DNA of 64,000 bases from Vermamoeba vermiformis (taxonomy: Eukaryota): assembly GCA_045837725.1 (NCBI GenBank), contig JBEWZL010000075.1:62001-126000 (forward strand), written 5' to 3'. The notes beneath the pieces were generated by a model, which was not told the origin of the DNA, ran no database searches, and saw only the letters and a program-made list of their open reading frames with translations. Both the position numbers and the translations under genes were made by a program. Below, one piece after another: positions 26,964 to 61,235 of this stretch (position 1 is the stretch's first letter; every line of letters starts with the position of its first letter).

Positions 26964-29900
26964 ATGGCGAATCAAGTTCAGAGCTCTGCAGGTAATTTTA
27001 TGGATAGAATATTATATAGTATGGCGTTATTCTTGAATTGTATCAATTTTCAATCAAGCAATGGAAAGGCAATGATCCGATCGGAAAGTGACGTCAAAAA
27101 TATTTTCAAAAAATATTTAAACATGGAGGACGCTATTTTTATATAATTTTTGTATCATATTAGCTATACCGAGGATTGATTTTCTGATTCTTTTATTTTT
27201 AAGTGAGATGGACAAGCCAGCTGATCCTCAACAACAAAGATGAGCTGCGCCGTCTTGGGCTATCATTGAGTGAAAAGAATAATAAACGCGGTGTATTCTC
27301 ATGGCGAAAGGGCTCTGAATTGAACTTGGGCGCGTTAATACAACCCTTCGGAACCACATCCGCTCTCGACCTACGCTTACCCAAGTAAGTCCGATAATCC
27401 TTATACGATCAGAATTATTAACATCCATAGTAGATCGCCCCCTCGCTGCGCTAAATGCCGATCTTATATCTGCAATAGATCTACCATTGAAATCAGCACC
27501 GGTACGCGGATCAAATCCCCTCAATTAAAGCCCGTTGAAATAACAAATTCTAAATGTATATTGACAGGACAATGGAAATGTATATTTTGCCAAGCAGACA
27601 ACAAGACCACAGACTATTCTGTAGTTGAAGACAGATCTGCTCACGTAGAGCTGACTGAACCAGTTTATGAATTCGAAGAATTGAATGACACGAATATAGA
27701 CAATAATGCCATCAATACGAAGCCTCTTATAGTAATCATTGACTCGAATATTGATGCTGATGGTTTAAAGGTACAAAATTTTTCAACGCCACATCCACTC
27801 GGTCAAACTTTAATTTCTTCCTTTAATTATTCATAATACTAACCACTGAATATAGGGCATTAAGTCTGCACTCTCCACTCTCATAATGTCACGTCCAGCA
27901 CATGCGTTGACAGCTGTCATGAGTGTCGGTCGTACTGTCGGCGTATTTATCCTGTCACGTGACTTTGATCACGTGACACTACTGCGCGTGTCATCGACCC
28001 CCGATCAGCGGGCATTAGTTGCATTCACTGAACGGCGAGATGAGTTTCTAGTCACCGCTGAGCAATTGCCTAAAATAGAAACAGCGCTGGACAGCATGAT
28101 CAACAGCAGCGGAAAAAAACAAAAAGATCCGCCACGTGCTCTCGGTGCCGCATTGGAAGTGGCACTCGCCCTGCTTGAACGTATGTCCTTATTTGGCAAT
28201 TTAATATTGTATGTCATGAATTGACTTGACATTTTAGCCGTACAAATCGACAAGCCCACACGAGCAGCGGAAGAACAGGACGAAGAAGGGTTCACTGAAT
28301 CACATGCCATCCATCACGTGGGCGGTCACGTGCTCGTGTTGCTGAGTGGTCCGCCGAACTACGGGCATGGCGCGGTACCTAAAGGCGCGAGTTTTAATCG
28401 CAACAAAACTGTAAGTACTGGTGGCCATTACTTAATTTAGTAATAATCCGTCTCACGCCTTTCATGAACAGGACGAAGATGTGCAATTGGAACAAGCGGT
28501 TGAATTCTTCACGCGCACCGGTGACCGTGCGTGGCGGATGAATGTGACGGTGAATGTGTGCACGGCAGGCATGGAGAACTGCGAGCTCAAAGTGCTGCGA
28601 CAACTCACCACGCCGACTGGTGGTGTCGTGCTGTCACTGCCGGACTGGTCAGCCACACTGTCACGTGATCTATTGTCGCTCGATCAGTGTCGCGGATATG
28701 ACGCGCTGTTGTCCATCAGAACTGACGAGCGCGTGTCACTGATGCACATGATTGGTCCAGCGCGACAAGTGTCAAGTGGTACGAGACGATCTTTGACACG
28801 TTACATTGACAAGAATGACACGGCCACGATCTGTCAAGTGACAAGTGTCAATCAGTGGTCGACACTCGCACTGTACTTTGACCTCGATGAAGACCTCGCT
28901 GATGACGAGATAGTTTTCCAATTCACCGTGCAATACGCTGACACGCAGCTACGAAGGTTTGTTATTGACACGTTGAATTTGACACCTGTCATTACTGACA
29001 CTTGCGTTTAAGAGTGACACGTGTCATCACTGAGTCATTGAAGACAACAGGCAGCATCAGTACTTATTTGTCCTCATTCAATCTTGACAACTGTAAGTTC
29101 ATATTACACGCAGCACACTTGACATTAACACGTGCAATTAGGGCTGGTATTACTCGCCAAGAAGTGCGTGCTAGCAGCGGAACAAAACGAATCAGCTGTC
29201 GAAGCAGTTCATCAGGCGCTGTAAGTCACAGGCCACGATGTACTACATCCTCCTTAACCGACTAACACATTGCAGTGACGAGCGATTGAAGACAATTGTG
29301 CACAATGTCGGTGAGTTGAAAGACAACAATTACGTGCTGCCAACGACACTCGAGACCTTGCCATTCAAGTACGATCAGTCACACAACACTGAAGCGCTTG
29401 TATTAACACCTTCATTCGCAGAATATTCATGCTGCGACGTAGTCCAGTGCTGGGTCAAATACTGCAACACCCCGATGACGTCGAGTACTTGCGCGGTCTG
29501 TTCTTGGCCATGACACCTGACGCGTGTCAACGTGTCATTGAGCCACTTTTGTTGCTGGCCAGTCCCGAGAACAATTACACGCCAACACCGACTGTCGCTG
29601 AGAATTTAGTCCTGCAATCCAATCACGTGATTTTGTTTGATCAGCAGACCGATGTCTATATTTGGAGCGGTCAAAATGTACTCGGTGCTGAATACGACAA
29701 TGTGCGCAATCAATGCCGCGAAATCATTGATGACTTGGCGCAAGACAGATTCCCTAGACCCGTCATCAGAGTGTTTAATGTACGTTGTTTAATATTTAAG
29801 GACAGCTCGAGTAAGTTCTTACTTTTTATTACAGGAAAATCAACCGGACACGCGGTGGTTAGAGAGCAGATTGATCCCAGCACACCGAGACTCGTTCAAA

Positions 29901-30029
29901 GAACAAGTGCGCTCATTCCCCGCACTGCAACAACTCACCGACAAGATGTTGCAGCTGTTCATATCAAAATTTCAACGTACTGAAGAGCTGAGTTACAATC
30001 AGTATTACAAACAGCTGCTTGGCAGGTAA
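26964..30029 (+). CDS. Divergent Sec23/Sec24-family protein (Sec23-like)
   Basis: Zinc finger PPRCAKCRSYI...WKCIFC; trunk RALGAALEVAL and LLSGPPNYGHG; LTTPTGG; FQFTVQY...RRVTRV; LRRSPVLG; gelsolin-like ILFDQQTDVYIWSG; DRFPRP; RWLESRLIP. Confidence 0.85.
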
Positions 30030-30129
30030 AATATGTTAATAAAATGTAAATAGTTCTGAGAAAACGTGGTTCAGTGAACGAAATCTATTTACAAACATGT
30101 ACAATCTATTTACACGGGACTATTCATAT

Positions 30130-35627: not shown

Positions 35628-38405
35628 ATGCAGTTTTGGAAAGACTTTTCGTTCCCTTCTCCAATTGATGATATATTGAAGCAAGGTGACTTCGACCTCG
35701 AGGAATTATTGGACGAAGATGAAGTCATTCAAGAGACTCGAAATCATAAGAAGGAATTAATAGAATAGTATCCAAAACCAAACCTAATTCTGATGCGCTA
35801 GATCGCTCTATTGATTGATTATTTACATGTTAAAAATTATTTCCCTTAACTTTTTATTCTAGTCTTGCTAAACCAGAAACTCTACACCGTTTACTTGATT
35901 TGATCACCGTCGAACCAGCCGAAGATGCTGGAGAAAAAGAACGATTTAGGTGAGTATACCTTTGATATTATCTACATTAGTATTATATTACAGTTACAGC
36001 TGCTGAATGTGATTAGTATTGCAATTAACCAAAGATTTTGGTTGCGGCTCCACAATCCGGCAGTTTTTTAATATTTTAAATTGCTCCGATAATATATAAA
36101 TATGTAGTGATAAATAACAATCTCGCTATAATCGTATTTATTTATTATACATCAATTGATTAAGCGTTAGGAAATTTAAAATTTCCTCTTCTCACGATCT
36201 GACCGTTTTTTATTGCAACACAGATACCCCGCTATTGTTTGCGAATTATTATGTTCAGAAGTCGAGGAGATGGACAATCAAGTCGTCAACAATGCCGAGT
36301 ATTTTGATAAGTTATTCGATTTTTTCAACAAGGACAAAGTCAATCCATTCCTTGCAACTTTTGTTTGCCGCGTTGCAAGCTGCTATTTATTGGTTAAGCC
36401 TAAAGAGGTACGCATTATATTATTTTAGCAATATCGAGTCAAAACAATCGATTTTAATTATTTTTGTAAAGACGATCACGTACATGAAAAACAAGGCCGG
36501 TTTTATCGATAATTTCTTCCGCCATTTGGACGTGGGTGCTGTCACTGAATTTTTGACGAAATTGATCAACTTGGAGACTCAACCTGAAGGTGCTGGCACT
36601 CTCGACGTAAGTGTTGTAGCTACACATGGATCTGCAATTTAAATGAATAATTTCTGCAATTAAATAGCAAGAATAACATATATTAATATTTTCTCTATTT
36701 AACAGTGGTTGAGCGAGCAAGAATTCATTCGAAAGATTATTCGCAAGTTCGACGTCCAATTTGTTCACGTGAGTACTTTTAATGCTGCTAAAAATAGCAC
36801 TCAATGCCTCAATGTCACGGCCGTACTGACGCGCTGTTAGATGCACTCGGATGTGGCCCAAACACTGTTAGACATCATCTCAGTCTCCTCGCCCAATTCA
36901 CCGCTGTTGACACAACTGGCCAATGAAGACACGATGCGATTGTTGTTCGATCTCATGCTCTCACCCACTTCTGGCTCCAGCTCTGCCATTCACTATGGCC
37001 TCTCAGTGCTGATTGGTCTCATTATCCCCATTGGCTCTTTGTTGGACGAGAGTGACACTGAAGGTGACAGCGACGATGAAGGTGACAAACAGAAGGCTGA
37101 AGTCACCATGGAGAACTTGCCGGCCTGGATCCGCTTGTTGCTGGACAAATTGGCGGACTTGAAGAACGTGCTCTTGAACCCCACTGTAAGTAGCGTGCTG
37201 TTGCGGTGTTGTATTCGATTTGTGTTGACTGATGGCCCATAGAATGCTCCGCAATTCAATCTGCCGAGTGGTAACTTGAAGAAGGCATTTGGCATGGACC
37301 GAATCAAGATTTTGGAGTACATTGATGCCTTGTTGGGCTTCCAATCAAAGCCCGTCGACAAAGTCATTTTGGATCACGATTTAATCTCAGTCATCATGGT
37401 ACGCGAGCTGAATACATGAGTCTCGTGCGTGGTGTTAATAATGGATTTTATTAGGACCTTTTCTTCGAATATGAATGGAACACTTTTATTCAAAACATTG
37501 CGCAGAGCATTATTGAACACATTTTGGACGACGATCACGATGAATTGCGCGAATCAGTAAGTCAACAATCAACACGTCTAGTACTCTGTATGATTGCTAA
37601 TAACGTGTCTCCAGTTATTTTCAAAAACCAAGCTTATTGACCGCATTATCAATGGCGAGCGAGCGAACAAAGAAATCGAAGCCAAGCCACAAGGTGTTCG
37701 TCGCGCGTACATGGGACACTTGCTGAACATTGCCGAGAAGTTGAAAGAGTCCTCTGAACACGACGACGTTGTCCGACAACACTTGGCTTGTACGTACTCG
37801 TATTCTCCCTGTCAATAGTAGTCGTGACTAACGCTGTTATTGCAGCACACCCGAGCTGGAATGAGTTCGTGTCCGGCCCATTGACCGTGAAAGAAGCACG
37901 CGAGGCCATCACACTGGGCGGTGCACAACCACGCAGCTCAGACCGATACTTGCCCGATCAAGACATTGCACAGCTCGGTCGTTCACTCTCTGGCGGTGGT
38001 TTCCAGGGCCTGTTAGACCTCTCCAAGTACGTCTTGTTGTCGCGTGACACGTGTCATGTAGTGTGTTCTAACGCTTGTTGTTTGACAGCTACGCCAATTA
38101 CAACCAAGACGACGAGGACGATGATGACGATCAAGACGGCGATGACGACGATGATGACGATGACGACGACAATCAAGATGACGAACACGATGTAAGTAGT
38201 CACTATAATAATAATAACCATCAGTCATAATGATGTTGTCGGACAAATGCTGGATCTGCTCGTACTAACTGCTGCTTTGTAGTTGATTGAAGAAGAAGGA
38301 GACGACGATGTAGATATGGACAGCGACACTGACGGCGAGGACTACGACACAGAACAGTCAGAAGTGTTGTTGACGAAACAGGAGATTGAGGCCATTGAAA
38401 TATAA
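35628..38405 (+). CDS. SAPS-domain protein (SIT4-associated / PP6 regulatory subunit)
   Basis: MQFWK...SPIDDIL...LEELLDEDEVIQE; RYPAIVCELL; FGMDRIKILE; DLFFEYEWNTF; RRAYMGHLLNIA; acidic tail. Confidence 0.92.
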
Positions 38406-38758: not shown

Positions 38759-40411
38759 ATGTTATTATCAACCGTAGTGAAGAAGTCGCGGAGTTGGTGT
38801 GCTCACTTGATAAACAGATCGCGCAGATCAGATCGGTAAGGGATCCACCAAGTTAAATTACATAATAAAAATAATATACTATTATTATATCAATCACTAC
38901 AGTTTTTCTCCGTTTGGGAGTTGGAATATTATATATTAAATTATCAAAATTAATAAAATTCTTGCGATCAGGCGGTCGTTGCACAGCGCACTAATGACAG
39001 ATGAATATTTATTCGATAAAATACGACCAGAACTACGCGGAAAAAAGAAGAGTGATATTTCAGTTATTGTTGGACTGTCTGGCGGCGTCGATTCATCAGT
39101 TTCAGCTTATTTACTACAAAAACAAGTAATAATGGAGTGACCCTTTTTAAAACAACAAAAATTCTGACCAGATCCACATCGTTAGGGCTACAAAGTTCGC
39201 GGTTTGTACATGCGCAATTGGTCTGAAGCAGAAGAGGGCTATTGTTCCGCACCCGATGACATGGAGCAGATCGATCGAGTCTGCAAGCACTTAAATATAC
39301 CCTATGATATAGTACGCGAAAGATGTGCCTTGTTAGGGGTCAGATCTGACACGCCTTTTTAGGTCAATTTGGAAAAAGAATACTGGAACCTCGTGTTTCA
39401 ACCAGCACTGCTCGACTATCAGCGCGGTGTCACTCCCAACCCCGATGTCGCGTGCAATCGCGAGATCAAGTTCAAACACTTCATGAACTACGCACTGCAG
39501 CACTTCAACGCTGATTTTGTCGCGACAGGACATTACTGTCGCACTGGCATTGATCTCCACACCGCGCGCTGTCAACTGTGGCGTGCTGTCGATCAGACTA
39601 AAGATCAAACGTACTTCTTGAACCAAGTGTCGCACGAGGTATGCCACAACATTGACAAGTTGACACGTGTCAGGTACTGACCGGTGTCAAACAGGCCCTA
39701 GCACGCGCGATATTTCCAGTGGGTGGCATGCACAAGACTGAAGTGCGTGCCTTGGCCAAGAGTGTTGGACTCGCCAATGCTGAGCGCAAAGACTCAGTCG
39801 GCGTGTGCTTCATTGGCAAACGCAAGTTCGACGACTTCTTGTCGCAATATGTGCACGCCACTCCTGGCAGATTTCAGTCAATGGAAGGCCAAGATCTTGG
39901 CGAGCACAAAGGTGCAGTGTATTACACTGTGGGCCAACGTGCTGCCATTCCTGGGGCCAAACAGAAGTACGTCCGCACTCAAGTTTGATAAGCACTTTCA
40001 TCTAATGTCCGTCATAGGCAATACATTGTAGGCAAAGACATGGAGAAGAATTTGGTGTATGTAGTGAGTGGTGCTAATCACCCTGCACTGTTCTCGGACG
40101 AGTTGACAACCAGACACTTTTCTTGGATTGGAAGTGCTCCTCCAGTTGAATTGCTACAAAAGGGCTCGATGAAGTGTAACTACAAAGTGCGTTACAGACT
40201 CAATTATGGCTCGTGCACTGTGTACCTGCCAGATCCATCTAAGCCTGAAGTGGTGAAGGTGTGCTTTGACATTCCGCAGCGAGGAGTGACGCCACAACAG
40301 TACGTGGTGCTGTACAAAGATGAAGTGTGTCTCGGAGGCGGGTCCATTGATGAGCCAGGACCCTCGTACTACCACCTCAAAAAGGAAGTCCCTACCTTAA
40401 TTTGTGAATAA
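38759..40411 (+). CDS. TRMU: Mitochondrial tRNA 2-thiouridylase MnmA/TRMU
   Basis: Basic presequence-like exon 1; GLSGGVDS; GLYMRNW; TPNPDVACNREIKF; ATGHY; KDQTYFL; DSVGVCFIG; YTVGQR; QRGVTPQQ. Confidence 0.95.
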
Positions 40412-40471
40412 ATCTGTGCTATTAGAATCGACAATTTTACATTTATTCAGCGTGCGCATAGTTACAAAGGA

Positions 40472-43691: not shown

Positions 43692-43894
43692 AATAAGCGA
43701 GCGGGAATTACTGGGAACAAGGTAGTGGGTTTGTTGAACAACAGAAATAAAAAAAAAACAAAGTCGAAAAGGATGAAAACTTTGTTTTTTTTTGGGTCAG
43801 TTTTTGCGTTTTGACGGTCAAAATTGTGGTTGGGGGAAGGGCAAAACCGGACGCTCAAACGCTTATTCTCAACTAACTTCAATAATTGTACACA

Positions 43895-44995
43895 ATGGGC
43901 GTTGGTAGAAAACAATCCAGAAAGAGAGCCCGTAAGAACGGTGTAAGTCATGTTATTTTTAAAATTTTTGGAATCGCGATCTAAAACCACCCAGATCGTT
44001 ACCAAGCGTAACAAGAGACCAAAGCGCCCGGCAAGAATCAATAAACCAACTGATTTATTTCGAGAAGCGTGGGATAACGACAAGACACTTCAAGAAAATT
44101 ACGCAGAGATTGGATTAACGTTCGATCCAAACGAAGAAGTGTTGAAAAAACATATTGAATTAATTGATACCGGTATAATTCCAGACTATGAAGATCCTGA
44201 TGACTTTGACCCTGAGGCTATTGAGATCGAAGAGGATGTCGAAGGCAAAGAGAAACTGAAAGAGCTTTTAGATGTACGCCATGCTAGCATTATTTTGCAA
44301 TTATTTATGCTAACAACGTTATTAACTATTCAGGTCCGTGAAGAGGCAGATCCTCGCCAACCAAAGCTTGGTGTCCGTGAGCGTGTATATATTCAGAAGT
44401 TGATTGCTAAGCACGGCACTAACTACAAGGTAAGTCATTCGAGAATGTGGCGACAAAGCACTGCTAACACGGTTGATAGGCCATGGCACGTGACATGAAA
44501 TTGAACTACAACCAATACACAAAGAAACAGTTGAAGCAGAAATGCAAAGTGTACGAAGACTTTTACCGCAATCCTATTGACTATACTGCACTCAACAAGC
44601 AGCGCAAAGAAGAGCGCAAGGCTCAGAGTGCTTTGAATGGCACGAGCAACAACCACAATCTGCCCAAGAAGAAGAAGAAACAAGAATCTGAAAGCGAAGA
44701 GGAGTTTGACGACGAAGATATGGGAGATATGGAAGAGTATTCGGGCGAGGAGAATGAAGACGAAGAGGACGGCGAAGAGATGTCGGGTGAAGATGACATG
44801 GAGGGCGAAGAAGATGAAGAAGAAGACGATGATTTGAACGAGAGTGATATCGATGACCTTGTTGATGAAGACGACGATATGCCTGCCCCCAAGCACAGAT
44901 CCAAGAACAACAAGGGTCGATCGCAGAACAACGCCAGTCATTTTGGTGGAGGACGCCGCAAAAAACAACGATCGACTGTATTTAGAGATAAATAA
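43895..44995 (+). CDS. NOP16: Nucleolar protein 16
   Basis: MGVGRKQSRKR start; WDNDKTLQENYAEIGL..DPN; YIQKLIAKHGTNYKAMARDMKLNYNQYT; acidic tail. Confidence 0.9.
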
Positions 44996-45108
44996 TACCT
45001 TTCAAGCATTTCCATTGTGGTTCGCAACTAACTTTTGATCCGCAATTATTTGCCATTAATCTATTCTTGCTAAAGACACGACCACAAGATGATTTTAGAA
45101 AAAATACT

Positions 45109-47075: not shown

Positions 47076-47152
47076 ATAAACAAACCTATGTTTTTCTTTT
47101 TTTGTACTCCAAAGAGCAGTATTTATTTCGCGTCCTTTGTGGGCATTTTTAA

Positions 47153-47210
47153 TTTCCCGCGCAACGCTGCGAGCAAACGTAAACCAATAACGATTTAAAA
47201 AGGCGGGACA
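47153..47210 (+). promoter_or_regulatory. E2F-like sites with CCAAT in the DP promoter
   Basis: TTTCCCGC at 47153-47160, CCAAT at 47184-47188, TTTAAA at 47194-47199, GGCGGGA at 47202-47208, all within 90 bp of the DP ATG. Confidence 0.5.
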
Positions 47211-47237
47211 AAATATCTTGACCGTTCCTAGAATATC

Positions 47238-48765
47238 ATGCAAACTAATGTAACTCCTGCCTGGCCGCAGGAATACGATCAAAATACTGAAAGTAAGGAT
47301 TCTAGTTTTTGATTCGAAAAAGAAATTCAGAATAATTTACTAAACCGCTATTTTAATTCCTTTAGACCTATTTCAGTCCTATTTGGGCGGAGAGGTACCC
47401 GTACAAAATGGCAATGGCGAAAACAATAATATTCAGCAAGATGAGCAAGCTTCCAATCTGCATGACGAGTTTATGCAGCTTTGCAAGAGTGTTGGACTCG
47501 AAGATTTAGCGAAGAAACAAGGATTTATTCAAAATAACGCAATACCCGATCTCAAAACGTACGCAAGTAAGTACTCGATCCTGATCGGATTATTGAATTG
47601 AATTGGGTTCGTAACCCCACGGATATTAAGCAACATCGTTTCATATTAGATGATCCAAAGGCTTCAACTGCAGAATCCACAAAGGCAACAGCAGAAGTAA
47701 AAGCCGAGCCAACACCAAGCCGCAGAGGACGAAAGAAGAAGCAGCCTGAGCCTCCGACACCCGAACCTCTCAATACTAGCGCAGTAATTAACGAGAGCCA
47801 AGATGACGGTTCAACAGACCAAGAAGAAGATGGGTAAGTGCAGCGTTGAATTGTTTTGGATCAACCGCACTTGTTGCAATGGACCTAATCGACCCCTATT
47901 GCAGACCCAACAAAAAGAAGCGAAAGGCTAAGGTCGACAAGGGCAACAAGGGCTTGCGTCACTTCAGTCGTCGCGTCTGCGAGAAAGTCGAGTCCAAGAA
48001 AGTGACGAGCTACAACGAAGTCGCTGATGAACTCGTCGCAGAGGCCCCTGACAAATCCACTGGCGGCCTCATCGATCAAGTATGTGATGTGCACGGCAAT
48101 AGGAGCGCTTAAATTAATTATTTTCCAATTATTAGAAAAATATTCGTCGTAGAGTGTACGACGCTTTGAACGTACTGATGGCTATGAATATCATCAAAAA
48201 AGAAAAGAAAGAGATTAGGTGGGTCGGTTATCCGACTGTTAATGCAAAAGAAGAGCTGCAACAGCTCATAGCGGACAAGGAGGAGCGGCTGCAAAGAATC
48301 AGAAAGAAAAAAGAGTTTTTGCAGGAATTAGAAGCTCAGGTACGTCACTCAGGCCCTCTTTCGCGTAACATATAATAACATTGGTACTCTTAGGAAACGC
48401 TATATAAGAATTTGATTACAAGAAACAGCACGATTACCAGCGATGCAGAAGAGCGGATCTACTTGCCGTTTATTATTATTCACACAAAGAAACAGACGTT
48501 GATTGACTGCGAGATGTCAGAAGACAAGAGCGAATACTTTTTTGACTTTTCAATGCCATTCACCATTCACGACGACAACGAAATTTTGCGAAGAATGGGC
48601 CTGGCCGGTCAACTGGCACCCAAGCCCCTCTCAACGAGCACAGATGCTGTCAGCAACGGCACGTCACTGGCAGGCACCAATGTAAATTCTATTCAAGACG
48701 AAGCAATGTCACTGTTAATGACTGATGATCAGAACAACACGAATGCGCTCGACAAGTCCAAGTAA
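47238..48765 (+). CDS. E2F dimerisation partner (DP / TFDP family)
   Basis: [62 protein letters not shown]...IDCEMS.D..EYFFDF...F.IHDD. Confidence 0.95.
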
Positions 48766-48876
48766 CGAGCTGACTTTTGCGTTGTTCAATTGTATAATAT
48801 TGCAGGAGTAAATATGAAATCACTTTCCGTACTCGAGCGCGAGGATAAATAACAAAGGTTTATGTACAAATGAATG

Positions 48877-50085
48877 CTAATCAAGATTTGAGGGGATGCG
48901 GTGCTTGAGTGTCACTTCGTAGATCAGAAATCCCACCGCTGCAGGGGAGAAAGCGCGTTTGAGTCGTGCACTCATACCGCGATAAAAATAGTTCCAGCCT
49001 TCAGTCTTGATAATGTGGCTGATTGTCGTGCGATAGGAATTGAACAGGAACTTGTTGTGGTGCTCGGTCATGTACACGTGCTGAATCTGTTCGAAGGGAT
49101 GTGCAATCAACTGATATGCCATGCCACCAAAGCCACCAGCCAGCAGCACTCCTGTCGCGCCCTTCACTTTGCCCCACTCGTCAGGCAGCAGCCAGTTGAA
49201 TTCTTTTTTCATCACTTTGTAAATCGCAAAAAAACTGCCAAAACCCAGTGCATCACGTGGCAGGACGAGGCCCAGTCCCCGCACCAGTGCCGCATTGCCG
49301 TGGTGTTGCATCAACAGGCGCGCACTGTTCACGTAATCGAAGCTCTTGTTCGAGTGTGCATTGTGAGCACGTGCAGCTTCAAAGGGCGACGCGACAAGTG
49401 CGTGCAGCGAGCCAGCAACAGCACCTGAGACGAGATTGGTCCACGCAACATTCACGTACACATCACGTGACCGCACACGTGACTTGTCTTTGACGCGGTG
49501 TTGTTTGTAGAGGTAGTGGTACATGCTCTGATAGCTCGAGAACAGAATCGTGCCCGTCACTGCATTGTACACGAGTGGTGGCATGAGTGTGCGGAATAGT
49601 CCGCGATACTAAATTAGGCAAGAGTCAGTTCAGTGAACGAGTGCTTCAGTGAATCGGTACTTGCCCCTTCATCGCGCACCAGTGTTCGCAGTGCTTGCAA
49701 GGCACTAATGCGCTCCCTGTGTGCAATCATCAATACACTATATTAACTAGCTCAAAGCGAAGTGGTTACTTGGAGTGCTCGTCCATGTGGTGATGACGGT
49801 GCCGCATCTTGGCACCTTGAAAGGCTTGCATCTTAGGTCGGAATAGTTTGGCGGGATTTTTGAAGAAAAATCCAATTTGTCGCAATACTGATGCTGCCAC
49901 TGCTCGTGCTACACCTGCAGCACTTCCGGATGGATCGATCTCTACTACTCTGCCATCCATTCATTCTTTAGCGAAAGAATAATTTATATTGCTGTGCTTA
50001 TTCCTGCATACCCATCTGCTGTGCTTGGTGAGTCTGTTTTATTTTCCGTTGTTGACATTTCGCTCTCAGGTTGTGGATCTAGCAT
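48877..50085 (-). CDS. Mitochondrial carrier (SLC25)-like protein, divergent
   Basis: SGAVAG...LVASPFEAAR; RDALGFGSFFAIY; LLAGGFGG...IAHPFEQ; EG...FYRG...RAFSPAAVGFLIYE. Start codon uncertain (50085 or 49960). Confidence 0.8.
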
Positions 50086-50544
50086 TGTAACGATCAAAAA
50101 AAGATATTTCGTGTTGGCACAATGACAATTTAATTAAATAAAAAACATTTATTTTATGCACGCCGAGATCCACGGGCAGTAGTAGTTCTGAAACGTCAGA
50201 TCCGAGTAGCTTACCTGCGTTAATTTAATTCATGGTGCACTGAGGTGTTATTCATTAAACATATAATAGCGCTAGTGCACTAATGCGGGGAGATATTAAG
50301 AATAACAACGGTGCTAAAATTGAACTCAGGCACGGAGAATTCAGTCACAGCACAGCCATTAGTGTCAGTCAAGTCCAGTGTCAATAAATAGGGCGGTGTT
50401 TTTATTTTACAAGTGGAGCGAACGTTGCGAGTACACCAAAGTGAATAGGAGAATAAAGCATTAACATATCGCGCTGTCAGATTAGTGCACAGCGAGAACA
50501 GATCGCGTTGTTATTTACAAAATGTGACTAGTGCAGCGCTGAGA

Positions 50545-52567
50545 CTACAGCCCATCTGAATAGGCAGGTGTGGCGTGGTACCAGGGGTTGTTCATCACAG
50601 GATAGTGCGTCATGTTCGGAGGTGCGCCGATAAGATGTTCGTCCATGTGATTGTACATGACGTGATTGAGCATGTCGGGGTGCTGATTCGGACTGTGACT
50701 CGGACTCAACGAGCCCTTGGACTTGCGCTGCTTAATGTCGACAAAATCTGCAAAGGAGAGTCAGTGACACCTGAGGCACGTGACTCGATATAGCGCTACG
50801 TACCTTTGCCCCAAAAGATCTTCAAGCGGTACACTTCACCACTCGGGCCTTGAATCTTTTTGCACTCGCGCTTGGCCAGCATTGCTTCGTCCTGTTGTTG
50901 ACACGTGTCACATGTCAGTGCTCCACAAATATCTGCAAAGATTACTTACCCTCGTGCCGAACTCCACCAATGCAAATCGACGCTTGCTGTTGCAGGTGAG
51001 TGACTTGACATCGCCGTACTTGATGAAGGTCTGCAGCAGGAAGGGATAGTTGTCGAGCTCTGGCGGCAAGGCTTTGAAGAACAGCCGCGTGTTGCTGTCA
51101 GAGGACGAGTCCAACGGATCAAACAGGTCGTTGGAGAGTGTGAGGGACTGCGGGGGAGTGGTGGAGGGTGGCGTGATGAGCGGTGTGATGAGTTGATTGA
51201 CAGGTGTCATATTCAAGTTCTTGATGTTCACCGTGCCCAGACTCGCACTGCGCTGATGACCAGAGTTCATGCCAGGGCCCTGCGGTCGTGAGCCGAGTCC
51301 GAGATTGCGCGTCTGTGGACTGAGCGCGATGCGGTGAGGACTGTTCATGGCACTCAACTCGTCACTCGCGCTGTTGTTCACATTCACGTACAGCGAGCTC
51401 GTGTTCAGCTGGCCCCACGATGCAGCGCGAGGCACGAGTCCTGACGCGCTGTGATTGGAGGGCGAGGCCTGTGCTTCCCAATAAGGGTCATATATCACGC
51501 CATTCGGTGTCACTGCTTCGTCTTCAGTCTGCGAGCCTGCATCGGTGATGAAGGGACTGAACAGATTGCCGCGACTGCTGTTGGTGCTGCTGAGATGACT
51601 GCGCGAGAGGCTGTCACTCTCTTGCAGACTCGCGGTGCTGTCGTCATCGCCGTCGTCTTGCAGCAGTTTGTTCAGTTCTGCTTCTAGATCTCGTGAAAAA
51701 TCTTCCATAGAATCTGGTTTTTGATTAGCTGGCTTCTGTTGCGTGTTATTTGTTCCGTTGCGTGTATTTTGTAACGGCGCTGGTTTGGGTGCGGGGGCAT
51801 TGCTCATCAAATCCGACGGGATGCGGAGCAAAGGATTGCTGGCTGATTTGCGAGGCAAGCCATATGTGTTATATTGCGGTTGTAATAATGAGTGTTTGTT
51901 GTGGTGCATATTAATAAAATTGTCCTCGTGATAAGCAAAATGTGCGCCGCGATATTGCGGGCCAATGTGGTCAGCAGGATTTGGATTCACTCGGATCAGA
52001 GGTGAGTCACGCAGAGGAAAACCGGAAGTACTCCTCGATGGCTGTTAATATAATGTGATTATTACGGTGATTTTGTTTGATACGATTTGTGGATCGAATT
52101 TCTACGTCAGTGGATGTCAGCCACAGTTTAAAAACGCAAATTAAAAGGTTCGAAATAAATATTATAGTAGTATATTTAATATGAATGGTCAAGTATCATA
52201 TTTCTGATAAGATTACCAACACCACAAATTTAATTCAATTATAAAAGTACGAAAAGTCTTCTCTAAAATTTCGATCCTTCAAATAATTGTTATTTCACGT
52301 ACCGATCCTCTGCTGCCTACTGTGCTATTTATATTTACACTTGAATAATTAACATAAACTGATTTCTCAACAACTTGGTCCGAATCTGGGATGGAAAGAC
52401 TGATCAGCTGAAATCCGAGTAATCAAAGATTAAAAATGAAACAAACCTTCATCATGATAGTGGTTGTTATCATTGGTGTACTGATAGGAGGGATATTCGT
52501 TGTAGAACTCCGTCTGCTCTTGATTGAGCGAATCGGTTGGGTAATAGCCCCGGTTATCTTGTGCCAT
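50545..52567 (-). CDS. Low-complexity protein with one C-terminal RRM-like domain
   Basis: RLFFKALP...FIKYGDVKSL...RRFALVEF...EAMLAK...RLKIFWGK; in-frame spliced model from MAQDNRGYY including a 14-nt exon at 52303-52316. Confidence 0.75.
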
Positions 52568-52749
52568 CTGTTGTTACACCCTCGTTACAGGCCAATCATT
52601 TTATACTCCTTTGTGGTGTATTGCGTGCAAGGTGGAATTCGAGTTTGTTCCATTCAGAAAGATACTGACGGGCCAGAAATAACAAATCACGTGCCGCACT
52701 ATCGACCGCGCTTTTTTTTGAATTCACAGCTGATAGGGACACCACAACT

Positions 52750-55534
52750 ATGACTCAATCAGCTGCAGATACGTCGTGGCTACAATCGTTGAGTACTGTC
52801 TTGCCTATATTAGTGCAACAGAAGAATGACAGCTTAATTCAAACGGTGCTGATCGGTATTATTAATTTCAACATTAATTGGTGGAAATAACTCACGTTGA
52901 CCTATGTATAGATACTATTAGGAGGCAGTTGACGGAGAAAATTATCCCTGTATTTTTAAAACACATTGAGGTAAGATCCAAAATCAAATTGGTATAAACA
53001 CTGACAAATATGCAGCAATGGAACGAACAAGACGTCGAGTCAATCGATCAAACATTAGAACAAGCTATTAATATCATATTGCCATTCGTTGAGAGCTCAT
53101 TGCAACAACTCAACTCGATCCGAGCGCACTCCGCAACACTCGCCGAGTAAGTATAGTATTCACTATAGTCTGGCCAGTACATCCACTCATAGTATCACTC
53201 GTAGTCGCATCGAACAAGAGCTGCGTCGGTTGTGGAGTGCCGCACTGCTCCACTTTGCCCCGCAGTTGAATCACGTGCTGCGCGCCTATTTGACGCGACA
53301 CTTTGCCCTGGTCGATCAGCTCGCAGCTGGGCACGAGGGCGATCACACTGAGTTCACTGAACTGCTCAAGGCACAGCACACCGCGCACATCACGCACTAC
53401 GCAGCGGTGTGTCGCCAGTTGCGCGCGTTGAATCTCCACGCGGTGCTCGAACAGCTCGCGACCACCGTGCTCATCGCGCAGATCTCTCGCCGCGTGCACG
53501 AGCACTGCAAACACTGCTACGACACACCACTGCTGCACGAGGGACTGCTGCACTGGTTCGACAAGGCGGTCAGTGCCTGGCTGGATCTCACGCTGCAAGG
53601 CGATCTCGATGCACAGACTGGTACGTCAATTGCCATATTAGGCATGCGTACTCTATGCTCACTTTATTTGTAGAAATTTCAGCTGCCTGCAAACGACGCA
53701 CATTATCCTCACTCTACGAACAATTTGCAGATTTAAGGTAACGAATACAAAAAGTAAAGCTCTTACTAAATATAGTAATCGACCTCAGAATTGCGGAATT
53801 ATTTGACATCATTATCGAGTATCCTGACAGCACACCAGCCCTGACAGATCTGCGCGAGTGTTTGAATAAGACGAGCAAACACAAAGAACTCATTGTTTCA
53901 CTGAAACAGAGGTATGTTCAATGCTCATTCATGAACCGAAATGATTGACACGTGTCACACTGCAGTCTGAAACAACGCTTGCTGATCCCCAGTGCCGAGA
54001 CACTCTCCATCGTGCAGTGTTATGTGCGCACGATCAAGACCTTGCTGTATTTAGATCCGAGTGCTGTCTTGTTGACAGGTGTCTCGGACACACTCGCGCA
54101 ATATTTGCAGCAAAACAGACCCGACACACTGCGCACCATAGTCACACAACTGACACAAGCGGCACTCTCTGATGACCCTGAAGCCGCGCAGTCAGATCTG
54201 TTGCTCTCTGAACTGCAAAAGTAGGTCAAATCACGTGCGCAATAGTCGACTGACTGTGTGCTATTTTTAGCTCAGAGACAGCGTGGAAAGACAAAGAAGC
54301 AGACGACGAGAGCAGCGACGAAGAGGACGAAAACAAGCGGCCGTGGCACCCTGAGCCGCTGTACATTCAACCAGGGTCACATCGCGAACAGAAGCCCGTG
54401 GACATATTGAGCATGTTGATCAACATCTACGGCAGTCGCGACTTGTTCGTGGACGAGTACACCAACATGCTCGCTGATCGATTGCTCGCGATCACGGACT
54501 TCAACACGGACAAAGAGATCAAGAACATTGAGCTGCTCAAACTCAAATTCGGTGAACATTCATTTCAACGCGCTGCAGTTATGTTGCGCGACATGATGCA
54601 GTCGAAGCGCGTCAATGCACTCATCGTACCGAAGATAGCGCACACTGACGACGCGCGGCTCACTGTGCCACTCTCAGCCACCGTCGTGTCGGGACTGTTC
54701 TGGCCCGCATTCAGAAACGAGACTGTGGCCCTGCCCGAGCCAGTGCAGAGGTATACAAAGGTATATTTAGGTGTCACGTGACTAATCGATTGCAACAGAA
54801 AACTGGACGCCTATTGCAAAGAGTTCGAGACACAAAAGCCGAGTCAGAAGTTGCACGTCAAAGAGCACTTGGGCCAAGTGGACCTCGAGCTCGAATTCAT
54901 CGACGGACGCGTGATCAGCTACACCGTCTCACCACTGCTCGCGACGATCATCTTGCACTTCCAAAAACAGCGTAAGAGTGCTTTGATTAGCCCATCGCTC
55001 AATCTAACATGTAATAGCACAATGGACCCTCACTGATCTCGCTGCCAAGCTCAATCTCGCGCCAGATCTGACGCGCCGTCGCATGGCGTACTGGCTGAAC
55101 AACGGTGTCGTGACTGAATTCGAGCCCGATCACTTCCAACTCGAAGAGAACGGCCCCAGCGAACAAGGTACCTAGTATAGATAGAGTTAATATGAGCACC
55201 TTCTAATTGCCATGCAGTTCAATTCACGGCGCACGATGACGATGGTGAAGGCTTGAATGGCGCGCAACAACAAGATGTACGTGCTGTTCAATTACTACTC
55301 ATATACCGTTACTAATGTGCGCAGGAATGGAATGAAACGCACGAGAACTTCATATTGGGCATGTTAACCAACTTGGGCGAGCAGAGTTTGGACAAGATCC
55401 ACTCCATGATGTCCAACTTCGTGGATGATTACGACAAGACCACTGCACAACTCGCCGCATTTTTGGAAAGGTTGGCACAGCAAGAGAAAATTGAGAGCAG
55501 TGGAGGCATGTACAGTCTGAGGCCGCAGAAATAA
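52750..55534 (+). CDS. ANAPC2: Anaphase-promoting complex subunit 2 (cullin-like)
   Basis: RIAELFDIIIEYPDSTPALTDLRECL; LKQRLLIPSAET; WHPEP; DILSMLINIYGSRDLFVDEY..MLADRLL; ELLKLKFGE; FILGMLTNLG. Confidence 0.93.
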
Positions 55535-55810
55535 ATGTAAAATAGAAGATCCCGCCATTCAAGTACGTTCTATTACGCAATAATAACAATAATGATACTC
55601 ATGATTACATCAAAATTGTTTATTCGACGATACAATAGCCTTCAACGCCCTCAAGACTTAAATTACAACAAGATCTGGTAGGGAAATAACGATATTTACG
55701 TTGCTATATGCGCTTACAAAGCATGCCAATGTTATTTAACTAATTTAAGTCATTATTCAACGCCTAAATGCGCTACTTACGCTTAATTTCAAGCAAATAC
55801 CATGCTAAAC

Positions 55811-56010
55811 GTCCCGCCTTAAAGCAGCAAAGAGGTGGATCCGGCCGTCGGGGGCAGATTTTAACGTAATTTAACGATCTGTGGCCTTCACACCACTTTT
55901 AGGGGGTCGCTGGAGCCTAAATAAAAATATCTTCCCGCCTTCCTGGAAAAGTTTGACACGGCCACGTGATCGTACTAGCCGTTGTGGAGCCCGCGCAAAC
56001 AACTATAAAA
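55811..56010 (+). promoter_or_regulatory. Promoter of the BRCT gene: two TCCCGCC (E2F-like) boxes, CACGTG and TATAAAA
   Basis: GTCCCGCC 55811-55818, TTCCCGCC 55932-55939, CACGTG 55963-55968, TATAAAA 56004-56010; ATG at 56083. Confidence 0.45.
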
Positions 56011-56082
56011 GAAATTTAAAAATTGTCGTTTGACCACTCATTCAAAACCAAACAAACACACAAACACAACTCACTAACACCA

Positions 56083-57468
56083 ATGGCTACTCGCGTCGTC
56101 ATCCCCGCTGATGTTTTCCAAGGCTTGGAAGCTCGCACCATCTAGTAAGTCAAATCCGCTGTTGAACAGTTTCACCAGATCGAGCATTAATATGTCACAT
56201 CAAATAGCGCCATTTGCAAGAACAGAGGTCTGACCGTGCAAAAAGAGGAGACTAAGCGCCAAATTATCGCTCGTCTCGTTGATGAAGTGACAGATCTGGG
56301 AGTGCGCCACTTGGTCTCGCAATTGAACAAGACAACCCTGGAGAACATTGCGGCTCAACTCGACATTGAACATCACTCCAAACTGGTGCTCGGCAAGCGA
56401 TTGTACGAGCGCATTGTTGAGGCTGGTGTCAGTCAGTTCTTCGAGTCTAAGGTGGCTATTGAAGACTTGCGCGAGATTTGTGACACTTTGGTACGTGGTA
56501 CTGCGACGATGACTATTCATATATATAATATTCTAATACCTCTCTGATATTAGGGCATCACTGTCGAATCCAAGGATGCCAAGTACATCGCCAAGGCTAT
56601 TTACGGTGAAGCTATGATCACCGGCTTGGAGATCCTGTTGTCGACTATGCAAACTGCTGACTTGCAGACTATGTGGTAGGTGTTGCTATTGTGCTCATAT
56701 TCAATAGCGCTGAAATAATCGATAATTGCTAGCCATGATCTCAAGCTCAAAGCAGACACTGAAAGCAAGGCCAAGCTGATGGAATGCGTCATCTTCCGTC
56801 GCAGTTACACCAAGAAGGCTACTCCCGTTACTGTTGAGCGCCGTAGTTCCAAGAAGCCCACCATTAAAGCCGGCATCCACGCCACTAACTTGCGCTCGTG
56901 GTACACCAAGCCTGAGCTCGTCGAGTGGTGCAAAGAGAACGACATTGCCTTGCTCTCCTCGCTGAAGAAGGAAGAGGTCATTCGTCGCATCTTAAAGTCC
57001 TTTGAAGAAGACAAAGAGAACTCTTCTTCTGCCGCCAACAAGAACAAATCTGCTCCTTCAAGCCCCAAGAAGAGCTCCGTCGCCAGTCCTAAGAAGACTA
57101 AGAAGGAAGAAAAGAAAGAGGAGTCTTCTGAAGAGGAAGAAGAGCCCTCTGAAAACGTTGAAATGAAAGACGAAACCTCGCAGATGGAGGTCGACGAAGA
57201 AGGCTCAGCTGAGAGCGATGCTGAAGAGACTGAGCTCGGTGATAACTTGAAGGGCAAGGTGTTTGCTATCACTGGCAAGTTTGACATGGACCGCAAAGAA
57301 ATTATCGCCTTGATCGAGAAGCGCGGCGGTTCAGTCAAGTCCACCATCACTAAAGACGTGCAATACTTGTTGTGCGCTGATGGTGACAGCGAGTCTGCTA
57401 AGGTCGTCAAGGCCAGACAAGAGGGCGTCAAGATCCTCGGTGCTGACTTCTTGAGCCAACTCGAATAA
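56083..57468 (+). CDS. Protein with helical SAP/HeH-like segments, acidic linker and C-terminal BRCT domain
   Basis: LKGKVFAITGKFDMDRKEIIALIEKRGGSVKSTITKDVQYLL...KVVKARQEGVKIL (RFC1/ligase-type BRCT); YTKPELVEWCKENDI...KKEEVIRRIL. Confidence 0.8.
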
Positions 57469-57702
57469 GATCGAGGTCAAGAAATTCTATTTTAAGACTG
57501 CAGAGTGGCCTAATACGCCTCACTAAAGTCGTTGTTGTACTACTATGAATAAACGAACAAATTCAATTCAAAAAAAGCTGTCAGAACTTGGCTTTGACTT
57601 TTTCGCGATGATTTTCTCACGGATAAAATCGGCACAAAAGAGGTGACTTTCTGTTGCTTCACAGCTGATTCGTAGGACTACACTGCTAGTAACCGTTGTA
57701 TA

Positions 57703-59339
57703 ATGAAGCGATTTACTCTATTTATTATTTATTGCTTGGCTCTCGCGCCCTTCATTTTGGCCGCGCAAGGTAAAATCCAGATCGTTGCACTGTTATGCTT
57801 TGTAATCAATCAGCTAATATATTGGCAGAGGAAGAATTTCAAAGGGGATATTTTAGTGGACGATCTGCTCATATTAGCATCGCTCCTAAATCGGTATGAA
57901 GCAATAACATTTATTTTCCGGATTAAAATATTATTATTTTTGATTGATCCATACAACGCTCAATACGAGTTTATTGACTATCAAATATTGATTAAATGCG
58001 ATTAATTAGTGCAATATGATTATTATTGATAGTAACGTATTTTCTTGAAGAAGATCGAAAATCCAAGCATAGAATTTTCAACCCCAGTTTCAGCCAGCAC
58101 TATTAAGGACACTGAAGTATTTGGTGTGATTAGCCACGAATTGTCGATGCCTAACAATGGCAATCCTTCTTTGGCTGTTACTAAGAACATTTTCTCGAAG
58201 CCATCTGCCAATCTGTTTGTTGTCATCGATGGTGTCAATACTGAAGGTACCTGACGTGCAACATGTGTCATAATATGAATATGGGCACTAACTTGCATTC
58301 ACCAGACAAGCAAGGTCTCGAGTTACAAGTCACTTCACAACCACGTGACACATCTGCTTTGCTCACCACACTGCTCTCGGGTCAACAGCCCGCACAGCAC
58401 GGCGTCACTGCCAAGCAATGGGCTCAACAGCGCCGCGTTGCCAATGTCGCTGATCTGCTCGCTGCTCGCACTCGTGGTCGCGCACTGATTGTCGGAGGTT
58501 CAGCTGACAGTGCGCTGCTCGCTGCAGTAACCGACAAGCAGCACAGCAACCCCGCGCAACTCGCTGTTGATGTGCAACAAGTGCTCGCTCAGCACTCTGC
58601 CCTCTCAGGTGTGCAATGGACTGTTGATGGCAGGCACATCACCCTCACTGTCAACGGCCAATCAGCGCGCTTTGATCTCAGCACTGAGCTCGCACTCGTC
58701 ACTGAACTGCTCACTGCCGCTGAGTGGACTCGCGCTCTCGAACACAACGACGAAGTGCGTGCCATGAGCCAGAACAGCGCTCCTGCCATGTGGTCCCTCG
58801 TCTTCAGCTCGTTGACAGGTGTCAATCAACGCTACGGCGCGCAATCCACTCAATACCGCGTTGCTCTTGCAGCCATCACGCAAGTGGTCGATGCTCTTCG
58901 CGCGCAATTGACTGCCGTGCACGGTGCTGAACGTGTCGCCGTTCAAATCGTGCGCGTGCCTCACACCTCATACAGCACTGTGGTGTCGCGCTTGAACCCC
59001 GTGTTGCAACGCGAGGCCAAGGCTGATTGGACTGCCACTCTGCCTGCCATCACTCTCACCAGTGTTGAGCGCGTAGAACTAGTCTGCACTCGTGTCCGTG
59101 AAGTCCTCGGTGCTGATTATGACGTCAACTGCCCTCGTGTTCGCGCTGCTCGTGCCGCGCAAGAGACCGCCGCTAACAACACCCCTGTCACTCAAGGTGT
59201 GTTCCAGATCTTGTTCTGGATGGGCGTCATCTTGATCATCGTTGCCATCTACGTCGTCATGAGCTTCGCTTTCATGGAAATCAAGCAAGATCCGCTCGTG
59301 TTCCGCAACACCATCAACTTGGAGAAGAAGATGAACTAA
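57703..59339 (+). CDS. ATP6AP2/renin-receptor-like type I membrane protein (V-ATPase accessory)
   Basis: Signal peptide; NIFSKPSANLFVVIDGV; C-terminal TM plus tail FQILFWMGVILIIVAIYVVMSFAFMEIKQDPLVFR. Confidence 0.7.
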
Positions 59340-59428
59340 GTCATGTGATTATAAATAACTATCGTATTTATCTTTTCGAATAAAACTCGCTTTTAATTTA
59401 CATCGGCTAATATTATTATGTACACTAA

Positions 59429-61235
59429 TTACATGATGACGCGATCACCGAGTTCGGTGCTGACGATTGCGCGGCCAAACAGACGCACATTGTCCTCGAG
59501 CTCGCGCGGCACCGCTTGTTTGGTCTCTTTGAGCAGCTTGAGCAGTTCTTTGCCGATCTTGCACTCGTACGTCAACAGACTCGTCGCCGTGCCTGGTCTG
59601 CCACCACGCGCTGCACGTCCCACGCGGTGAATGTAGTCCTCAATGGTGAGTGGCATGTCGTACAGAATCACGTGCTGAATGCTGTCAATGTCGAGGCCTC
59701 GGCTCGCGACATCAGTAGCGACCAACACATCGAGCTGATCGGACTTGAACGCGCGCATCACTTTGAATCTGAACGGCTGTGACTTGTCGCTGTGCAGTCC
59801 TGCCACGTGGAACTGTTCTATTTTTAGCAGCTGCACGAGCTGATCGACGGTGTGTTTGTTGTCTGCAAAGATGAGCACTGGCGGACGTTCAATCTTGCGC
59901 AGCACTTCGAGCAGTCGCATCTGTGACACCTGTCAGTAAAAGTGACACGTTGACATGCGGTGGCACTCACCTGTTTGTGTGCAGTGTGCACGAAGAGCAC
60001 GTGCTGTGTGAGGCCAGGCGGCAGTGGCGAGCTCAAATCTCCGACTGTGATGTGCACTGGTCGCAGCACGGCACTGCGCGCGACACGCGTGACAGCTGCT
60101 GGCATGGTGGCACTGAACAGCAGTGTTTGGCGAGGTCGACCATTGACACCTGTCAAGCTCTCATCGCAGCGCGCTAAAAATAGCCTCAGCTGTGCCTCCA
60201 TGGACGAATAAGGGTTGTCTTTGATACTTTGCGCTTCTTCTTCTGTTTCCATATTTGGTGCGAGGGTGAGGAGTCGATCGATCTCATCAAACACCAGATA
60301 GGCGAGATTGTTGAGCGGAATGTGATATCGGAGATTGTTCCGCGGGTCAGTCAACTGCAACAACCGACCAGGCGTGGCAATCAGCAGATCCACGCCACCA
60401 CGCAGCACTTCGATTTGAGATTGCGCGGAGATACCTGCGAGTCATGTCAGACGGTGCCACTACCAAATATAGACAAGTACCTCCGACGAGTCCGAGCACT
60501 CTGCGGCCCATGAGTGACTGGTGCGTGTACGGTGGCGTGTACTGGCCAGCCTGCACTGCACACTGCGCGTAGTACTCGAGCCAGCGCTGATATTGCGCGG
60601 TGTACGGCGGAATAATTGACATGCACAGCGCATAGACCTGCTCCACGAGCTCGCGTGTCGGAACAATAATTATTCCGCTCGGTCCCTGGCCTGGTGTCGC
60701 GCGCACCGTGGCAGGATGTGAGAGCAGTGCCAAATAAGGCAATAGATAGGCCAGGGTCTTGCCCGAGCCAGTCGGTGCATTGCCTAATATGTCGCGGCCG
60801 CGCAGTGCATTGCTCAACACTTCGGATTGGATCGGCGTGGGACTCTGTGCTCAGTCAGCGCTGCAACGAGGTCATAATGCAGTCACTACGCACCTGTATT
60901 CTCTTTTCTTGTAATTTAAGCAGAATTTCCTCGCTCAGTCCTGCCTCTGCGAACTCTTTGATGGGTTGTGCTGGATCTTCACCATCCACCTTTACGAGCA
61001 CCTTAGTATCTCATATAATGGACGGCGTATTTGTTTCTGAATTTACCTTAATTTTGTGACGCCGTCTGAACTCGATCAGCTCCTCTTGTGTGAATGAAAC
61101 GACATCTTGCTGCGGAGGGTTGTAATAGGACGCTACAAAGTTGTCTTCTTGTCCCGTGGACTTGTGCTTCAACTTCTTGCGCAGTGGCTCTTGTAGCTCA
61201 TTATCATCATCGAGCTGTGTGTTGTTGTTGCTCAT
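59429..61235 (-). CDS. DEAD-box RNA helicase (DEID variant), DDX41/DDX23-like
   Basis: PTPIQ; APTGSGKT; PTREL; ATPGRL; DEIDR; SAT; PPVLIF; TDVASRGLD; HRVGRAARGG. Confidence 0.9.

Follow-up and report, generated by a model that had tools for sequence, protein, structure and literature searches.

Background

Several DNA signals carried within gene bodies are known from animals, among them the PATC introns and the pairing-centre and dosage-compensation 12-mers of C. elegans, the MSL recognition elements of Drosophila and exonic transcription-factor sites ('duons'). They act on chromatin or on whole chromosome domains and not in the manner of classical promoters, and some of them constrain codon choice. 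Here we describe a gapped palindrome, TGACA-nn-TGTCA (TGACAnnTGTCA), which is present in 12 exact copies, spread over seven genes, in a stretch of 64,000 nucleotides (nt) of nuclear DNA from Vermamoeba vermiformis (NCBI GenBank assembly GCA_045837725.1, contig JBEWZL010000075.1, positions 62,001 to 126,000 of the forward strand), referred to as the window. Like the animal signals, the palindrome is short and lies within transcribed DNA; the sequences differ, and none of the animal signals is this palindrome. Those signals have been defined genome-wide by experiment, whereas the present motif is known from one 64-kb stretch, and no description of an intragenic motif of this kind was found in the literature searched. 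Because of its enrichment, its placement in introns, the outcome of codon shuffling and the conservation of 11 of 12 bases in a relative, the motif points to a selected DNA-level signal and not to protein coding, a repeat element or an RNA fold.

The closest described sites are those of dimers of TALE-class homeodomain proteins (TGIF1/2, MEIS1-3, PKNOX1/2 and Hth), which share with the palindrome the half-site TGACA (24 of 24 half-sites here, by the definition of the search) and the same head-to-head inversion across a 2-bp spacer, giving a 12-mer. Two TGIF1 homeodomains were crystallised on ATTGACAGCTGTCAAT, with TGACA as its core (PMC6158717), the MEIS3 motif is TGACAGGTGTCA (PMC5449588), and the seeds of the Hth dimer and of Exd-Hth (PBX-MEIS) are TGACAGCTGTCA and TGATTGACAG, respectively (bioRxiv 10.1101/706473). 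TALE homeobox genes with PBC-type partners have been reported in Amoebozoa, Cryptophyta and Excavata (PMC6219170), and the protist is therefore likely to have them.

For dispersed palindromes with invariant arms, the nearest analogue is found in the Cluster O mycobacteriophages, which carry a 17-bp dyad, TGTTCGG-NNN-CCGAACA, in dozens of dispersed copies, many of them in open reading frames (ORFs) (PMC4351075). The phage dyad and the motif of the window both have invariant inverted arms and a variable centre; the dyad differs in its phage host, its 7-bp arms, its 3-bp spacer, its many intergenic copies and the absence of introns.

Enrichment, spacing and sequence context of the palindrome

The excess of TGACA-nn-TGTCA over chance in the window is about 50-fold. 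In 100 dinucleotide shuffles the mean number of exact copies was 0.13 and the maximum 2, against the 12 observed, and the analytic Markov expectation was 0.07 at order 0, 0.15 at order 3, 0.25 at order 5 and 0.49 at order 6; the value of 3.2 at order 7 comes from a model that memorises the copies themselves. The enrichment thus survives at the Markov orders (4 to 5) at which the original prediction had allowed that it might disappear. All 12 starts and spacers given there were borne out, as were its four one-mismatch copies (94, 28763, 29518 and 39678), and four further near copies were found (21453, 29085, 50906 and 54073). With up to one mismatch allowed, the window holds 20 sites (12 exact and 8 near) against 3.73 expected. 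Exact and one-mismatch copies stand at 12:8, where chance would give about 0.13:3.6 (about 1 to 28), and this surplus of exact over near copies indicates high specificity.

The spacing is equally strict. Twelve sites have the inverted half-sites 2 nt apart, two each have spacers of 4, 9 and 10 nt and one has a spacer of 11 nt, with none at 0, 1, 3 or 5-8 nt. Across spacers 0-15 other than 2 the inverted dyad yields 0-2 copies each, so that the spacer specificity raised as a check in the original prediction holds for n=2 alone, and everted and direct arrangements of the half-site likewise number 0-2 at any spacing. When all 5-mers were scanned with their reverse complements at spacings 0-12, TGACA-nn-TGTCA ranked first by far (P about 4e-19). 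The copies are clustered, with 4 of the 11 gaps between them shorter than 300 nt (P 0.016).

The centre of the 12 exact copies is CG in five, CC or GG in five, GC in one and AG in one, so that among the 24 half-sites the sixth base is C 16 times, G 7 times and A once. In 11 of the 24, TGACA has a T in front. Outside palindromes, the 178 isolated TGACA half-sites are near background in number, and their context amounts to a T in front and nothing more. TGAT stands directly upstream of 4 of the 24 half-sites in palindromes and of 2 of the 178 isolated ones (Fisher P 0.002). TGATTGACA occurs 6 times in the window where 1.0 is expected, four of these occurrences directly adjoining an exact palindrome.

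Placement of the copies in introns and exons

Copies were assigned to introns and exons on the basis of Pfam-supported ORFs, frame-compatible GT..AG pairs and manual checks. The gene models place all 12 exact copies within genes, as had been claimed, most of them 0.7-1.8 kb inside. Seven are intronic, in six introns that belong to as many genes, and five are exonic; the original prediction had counted six intronic and six coding copies, and its six introns of six genes stand while the split itself does not. The window has 61 candidate short introns (median 58 nt, with donors such as GTAAGT or GTACGT), which together make up 3,967 nt and thereby 6.2% of the window; in the interval 27.9-60.2 kb their share is 8.7%. 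For intron fractions of 6-15% the presence of 7 of 12 copies in introns has a P of 2e-6 to 7e-4. The exact copies are as follows.

27908..27919, exon of a Sec23/24-like gene (+): TGACAGCTGTCA; reads L-T-A-V-M; the Sec23_trunk match spans the site
28839..28850, exon of the Sec23/24-like gene (+): TGACAAGTGTCA; reads V-T-S-V-N; the Sec23_BS match spans the site; TGAT on the right half-site, minus strand
28980..28991, Sec23/24-like gene: TGACACCTGTCA; first of two copies in one intron
29015..29026, Sec23/24-like gene: TGACACGTGTCA; second copy in the intron that holds the 28980 copy
38045..38056, intron 38027-38088 of a SAPS (SIT4-phosphatase-associated) gene (+): TGACACGTGTCA
39661..39672, intron 39639-39694 of an MnmA/TRMU-like tRNA thiolase gene (+): TGACACGTGTCA
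50899..50910, intron 50892-50949 of an unnamed gene (-): TGACACGTGTCA; 6 nt from the AG of the 3' splice site and 7 nt before the exon
51198..51209, exon of the same unnamed minus-strand gene: TGACAGGTGTCA; reads M-T-P-V-N; TGAT on the left half-site
53946..53957, intron 53912-53965 of the ANAPC2 gene (+): TGACACGTGTCA; TGAT on the left half-site; 8 nt before the exon
58813..58824, exon of a renin-receptor (ATP6AP2)-like gene (+): TGACAGGTGTCA; reads L-T-G-V-N; the RENR_N match spans the site; TGAT on the right half-site
59924..59935, intron 59921-59970 of a DDX23/Prp28-like helicase gene (-): TGACACCTGTCA; shares bases with the likely branch point TACTGAC; ends 3 nt short of the exon
60144..60155, exon of the DDX23/Prp28-like helicase gene (-): TGACACCTGTCA; reads L-T-G-V-N; in the variable insert that separates DEID from SAT

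The one-mismatch copies, and the two further features to which the list refers, are these.

94..105: TGACACGTGTGA
21453..21464: TGTCACCTGTCA
28763..28774, exon of the Sec23/24-like gene: CGACAAGTGTCA
29085..29096, spanning an exon-intron junction of the Sec23/24-like gene: TGACAACTGTAA
29518..29529, exon of the Sec23/24-like gene: TGACGCGTGTCA; its reverse complement is the variant of the copy in the relative L001 (see below)
39678..39689, in the intron of the 39661 copy: TGACCGGTGTCA; overlaps the branch point TACTGAC; not retained in L001
50906..50917, overlapping the 50899 copy: TGTCACATGTCA
54073..54084, ANAPC2 gene: TGACAGGTGTCT
28957-29043 or 28961-29050, Sec23/24-like intron with two copies; both versions are frame-compatible, with an in-frame stop at 29009-29011
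27900..29650, dense cluster in the Sec23/24-like gene, with 4 exact and 3 near copies

Within the dense cluster, isolated TGACA(C) half-sites and CACGTG are 6-10 fold more frequent than in the rest of the window, and three exons within it hold 20 half-sites where synonymous shuffling gives 7.3. A PDB sequence search with two Sec23/24-like exons returned nothing usable.

Two of the introns have further backing. Intron 53912-53965 splits the TPR_ANAPC2 profile into 12-61 and 61-110, and intron 50892-50949 is backed by RNA: runs X22, X23 and X24 have 19, 37 and 45 reads, respectively, whose loose ends at position 50949 continue into the upstream exon. This is the one motif-bearing intron confirmed by the three RNA runs, which show no start, end or editing signal at the copies, at a depth mostly below 10 (2-7 in the bin over the 51198 copy). 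The runs, which cover 40501-60500 of the window, bear the species label of the DNA run that matches the window best, but they are 95-99% identical to the window and mostly placed in part, and probably derive from another strain or a cryptic species.

The preference for introns could also be read as a sign that the motif acts in the pre-mRNA, helping to define the branch point or the 3' splice site of very short introns through a bound protein or local pairing, with the exonic copies as enhancers or silencers. Besides the 7 of 12 intronic copies, three that end 3-8 nt before an exon (59924, 50899 and 53946) speak for such a role, as does the presence of TGAC at the core of likely branch points (TACTGAC, CACTGAC), which the copy at 59924 and the near copy at 39678 overlap. 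Branch points conform to yTnAy, lie about 10-40 nt from the 3' splice site and are confined to introns. The host introns other than those with this overlap have a separate CTAAC or CTGAC, the position of the motif varies from 18 to 57 nt from the 5' end of the intron, and for the five exonic copies the closest predicted splice site is 51-250 nt away. Perfect dyad symmetry is not needed for RNA recognition, and a loop of 2 nt does not allow a viable hairpin; folding the six host introns revealed no common structure, with z values of -0.5 to -2.4 of which the low ones arise only from pairing between two copies. The CC/GG centres do not favour one strand of the gene either (2 CC and 3 GG on the sense strand). 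We regard a splicing element as improbable.

Independence from coding sequence and repeats

The original prediction had argued that protein sequence could not account for the copies, and this is confirmed by permuting synonymous codons within the six host exon segments (3,762 nt, 2000 shuffles), which rules out protein sequence as the cause. The permuted segments contain 0.12 full sites on average against 5 observed, a number that none of the 2000 shuffles reached, and 14.9 half-sites against 35. All five exonic copies (27908, 28839, 51198, 58813 and 60144) are in the phase xTG ACA NNT GTC Axx. This shared phase carries little weight as evidence, one of the three phases beginning with a stop codon and another needing a rare Cys codon. 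The exonic copies at 28839, 51198 and 58813 also have an identical sense-strand continuation, TGTCAATCA, which gives T-x-V-N-Q in three unrelated proteins; in our reading this continuation belongs to the DNA site, as its TGAT extension, and is not a protein motif.

Searches around the 12 copies revealed no repeat family longer than about 22 nt, the longest being a 22-nt family with 3 members at 77-100% identity, and no terminal inverted repeats or target-site duplications. The window contains no Rfam RNA family and no tRNA.

These results bear on the possibility that the motif is a functionless by-product, either the footprint or fragment of a mobile element (an introner or a miniature inverted-repeat transposable element, MITE) or the outcome of sequence-specific mutation or gene conversion. 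The enrichment of the motif in host introns would suit such an origin, and one pair of copies (family D9) has a 15-mer in common and agrees at 19 of 22 bases. The exonic copy of the helicase gene sits where the alignment with human DDX23 has 4 gap positions; the insert is, however, a variable loop, so that its gaps prove little. In this helicase (60060-60160) the DEAD box reads DEID, and the insert before SAT, with its 4 gap positions against human DDX23, is lineage-variable. A mobile element of the MITE or introner type is rejected in the absence, at the 12 copies, of any family longer than 22 nt and of the terminal repeats and duplications sought. The 12 exact copies against 8 with one mismatch are the reverse of what neutral decay would leave, and one copy predates the split from the relative L001, in which it has been retained amid a randomised surrounding intron. 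We consider a functionless by-product very improbable.

Conservation in a syntenic relative

A scan of metagenomes gave a sole relative, the contig L001 of 4.15 kb (4,150 nt), which is syntenic with 38.3-42.6 kb of the window; further relatives were sought among genome contigs and viral contigs, and none were found there. L001 has 81% nucleotide identity overall, and its topoisomerase I has 95% amino-acid identity; in database searches the topoisomerase I exon of the window had no relative above 65% identity. In its MnmA-like intron 11 of the 12 bases of the motif are kept, while the other 44 aligned columns of the intron match at 20, and three other introns of L001 match at 21-45%; the intron background as a whole is put at 43-55% identity. 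Retention of 11 of 12 bases in this intron has a chance of about 0.001-0.004. The support that L001 lends to conservation is real but thin. Together with the codon shuffles and the 7 of 12 intronic copies, the orthologous intron copy bears out the proposal that a DNA-level motif shapes intron and codon sequence.

Ends of DNA contigs beside two copies

Among the DNA contigs of run X2, two of the six loose ends listed (one before 50894; one before 53942, in two contigs) are no more than 7 nt away from the copies at 50899 and 53946. One of the two joints listed (50917 to 58444) is within 7 nt of the 50899 copy, at a depth of 324 compared with about 445 for the collinear contig. The divergence of these contigs beside the copies could stem from a paralogous locus, from an insertion in one allele, from a rearrangement or from an artefact of the assembly graph; on the by-product explanation, the contigs might represent further copies, elsewhere in the genome, of a somewhat longer unit. 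Contigs of X2 with loose ends and a 120-nt skip were also seen at serine/acidic coding repeats in the N-terminal region of topoisomerase I (42441-42648) and in the region neighbouring Nop16 (44686-44829), where they look like allelic variation in repeat length.

The contig ends beside two copies keep alive the readings of the motif as an enzyme target and as a recombination site. The copies might mark modification, breakage or rearrangement by an enzyme that acts on DNA, be it a methyltransferase, a nuclease or an enzyme derived from a recombinase or transposase. Interrupted palindromes with invariant arms are typical of enzyme targets, and the motif fits that type. The window also encodes a CDCA7-type zf-4CXXC_R1 domain beside a PWWP domain, and 5 of the 12 centres are CG; the zf-4CXXC_R1 domain of this type goes with the DNA cytosine methylation machinery. 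The two domains lie in adjacent ORFs at 21412-24378 (-), with a JmjC ORF at 25302-25652. Weighing on the other side, 7 of the 12 centres are without CG, and sequences that an enzyme cuts tend to be avoided, in contrast to the roughly 50-fold enrichment of the motif. The apparent association of X2 contig ends with the copies is based on the six loose ends listed, with 54 others outside that count, and one loose-end consensus searched in the window had no match, which a second locus or allele may explain. On balance an enzyme target seems unlikely.

Candidate readers of the site

The resemblance to TALE sites that the original prediction had recognised extends beyond half-site, orientation and spacing, for which the TGIF1 crystal, the MEIS3 motif and the Hth seed provide the counterparts. 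The crystallised TGIF1 site ATTGACAGCTGTCAAT has a T before TGACA, as do 11 of the 24 half-sites of the window, and the TGAT prefix of the Exd-Hth seed TGATTGACAG is that of 4 of the 24. The resemblance does not extend to the sixth base, considered below. By analogy, the motif would work like a TALE-class homeodomain dimer site, yet we do not class it as one.

The suggestion of a WRKY W-box was not upheld. The W-box consensus is TTGAC followed by C or T, whereas A follows TGAC in 24 of 24 half-sites and T precedes TGACA in 11 of 24. The window does encode two WRKY domains, both with the canonical WRKYGQK, in adjacent ORFs at 44992-46616 (+), probably a single two-domain (group I-like) gene, here in a non-plant-like protist. 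A long ORF at 61429-63786 (-) has a Peptidase_S74 (intramolecular chaperone) domain, as found in MYRF-type membrane-tethered transcription factors. The WRKY, DP/E2F and MYRF-like genes of the window were set aside as sources of the reader, only proximity linking them to the motif.

Every copy has CANNTG at its centre, which recalls the E-box and G-box (CANNTG, CACGTG) of bHLH and bZIP proteins. These proteins recognise a specific central dinucleotide and tolerate variation in the flanks; in the palindrome the TGA/TCA flanks are invariant while the centre takes four forms, the opposite of such recognition, and this class was rejected. CACGTG is nevertheless the commonest 6-bp palindrome in the window (50 vs 32 expected, Markov order 4). 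It occurs in clusters inside genes together with the motif, is retained at synonymous positions of the host exons (7 vs 2.0), and may be a second gene-embedded site. Its clusters are at 27956-29624 and 49075-49476; nine sites lie in the Sec23/24-like gene, eight of them outside motif copies, and five lie within 400 nt of a mitochondrial-carrier gene. Several of the CACGTG sites are of the GTCACGTGAC type.

Discussion

We favour, with a probability of roughly one in two, the reading that the motif is a docking site, kept inside genes, for a DNA-binding protein that is dimeric and TALE-like. A dimeric DNA-binding protein is suggested by the perfect dyad symmetry, the fixed spacing, the invariant arms and the variable, C/G-rich centre. 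Going beyond the observed enrichment, spacing and placement, we infer that a protein binds, that it does so as a dimer and that it belongs to this family. A symmetric dimer of a sequence-specific protein would sit on the motif, with one subunit on each TGACA half-site and with little or no contact to the central pair of bases, mostly C or G. The sites would be retained within transcribed regions, for which short introns would be the cheapest location, in part because TGAC can double as the core of a branch point. Where no intron is available, coding sequence would take up the site in the phase xTG ACA NNT GTC Axx and would have its Thr and Val codons fixed in return. By its half-site, orientation, spacing and occasional TGAT, the reader would resemble a TALE-class homeodomain dimer (MEIS/PKNOX/TGIF/Hth). 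As to what binding would do, intragenic control of the host genes or chromatin marking of gene bodies is our guess.

Several observations weigh against a TALE-like docking site. Docking sites of such DNA-binding proteins usually lie in front of genes and not inside them, while none of the 12 exact copies is in promoter-like intergenic DNA, which is atypical for a transcription factor. Published TALE sites have G as the sixth base (TGACAG, with a centre of GC or GG/CC), whereas the sites of the window mostly have C (16 of 24); unlike in published sites, CG is the commonest centre, and all the sites of the window are intragenic. The CG-spaced 12-mer was not found as a reported motif in the literature searched, where its occurrences were confined to two papers on Ebola virus. 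No Homeobox or Homeobox_KN domain was detected among 421 ORF queries, which comprise all ORFs of the window of at least 55 amino acids. The first 27.9 kb of the window has none of the 12 copies, all of which are within 27.9-60.2 kb (P about 0.001 by site, 0.018 by gene). In L001, a single change breaks the palindrome of the orthologous copy, and the 4,150 nt contain no exact TGACA-nn-TGTCA; the conservation in relatives that had been proposed as a check is thus seen in one relative as an intron copy with 11 of 12 bases, without an exact copy and with the palindrome broken. A binding site also leaves the loose ends and the joint of the X2 contigs beside the copies at 50899 and 53946 unexplained. 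The whole analysis is based on one 64-kb window and 4.15 kb of one relative.

A rather unlikely but broader alternative is that the palindrome serves as an 'address code' of a chromosomal domain or gene class. Kept by selection in about one in seven short introns and at silent codon positions, and read by a dimer, it would act across tens of kilobases as a mark for chromatin, pairing, replication or recombination instead of switching single promoters. The odd breakpoints of DNA contigs beside two copies would, under such a code, be real recombination or rearrangement.

Conclusion

If the excess proves local to a few genes, the motif would be an ordinary, oddly placed cluster of transcription-factor sites. 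If it is genome-wide, the organism would have a high-specificity docking site inside genes that is dense enough to constrain introns and synonymous codons, a situation rarely so clean in eukaryotes. A regional marker or recombination target would be more unusual still. A genome-wide excess would also open to study how coding sequence can serve a second use and how minimal introns of about 55 nt can hold functional sequence, in a system that is tractable, and it might reveal an ancient TALE-type recognition grammar in a deep-branching protist.

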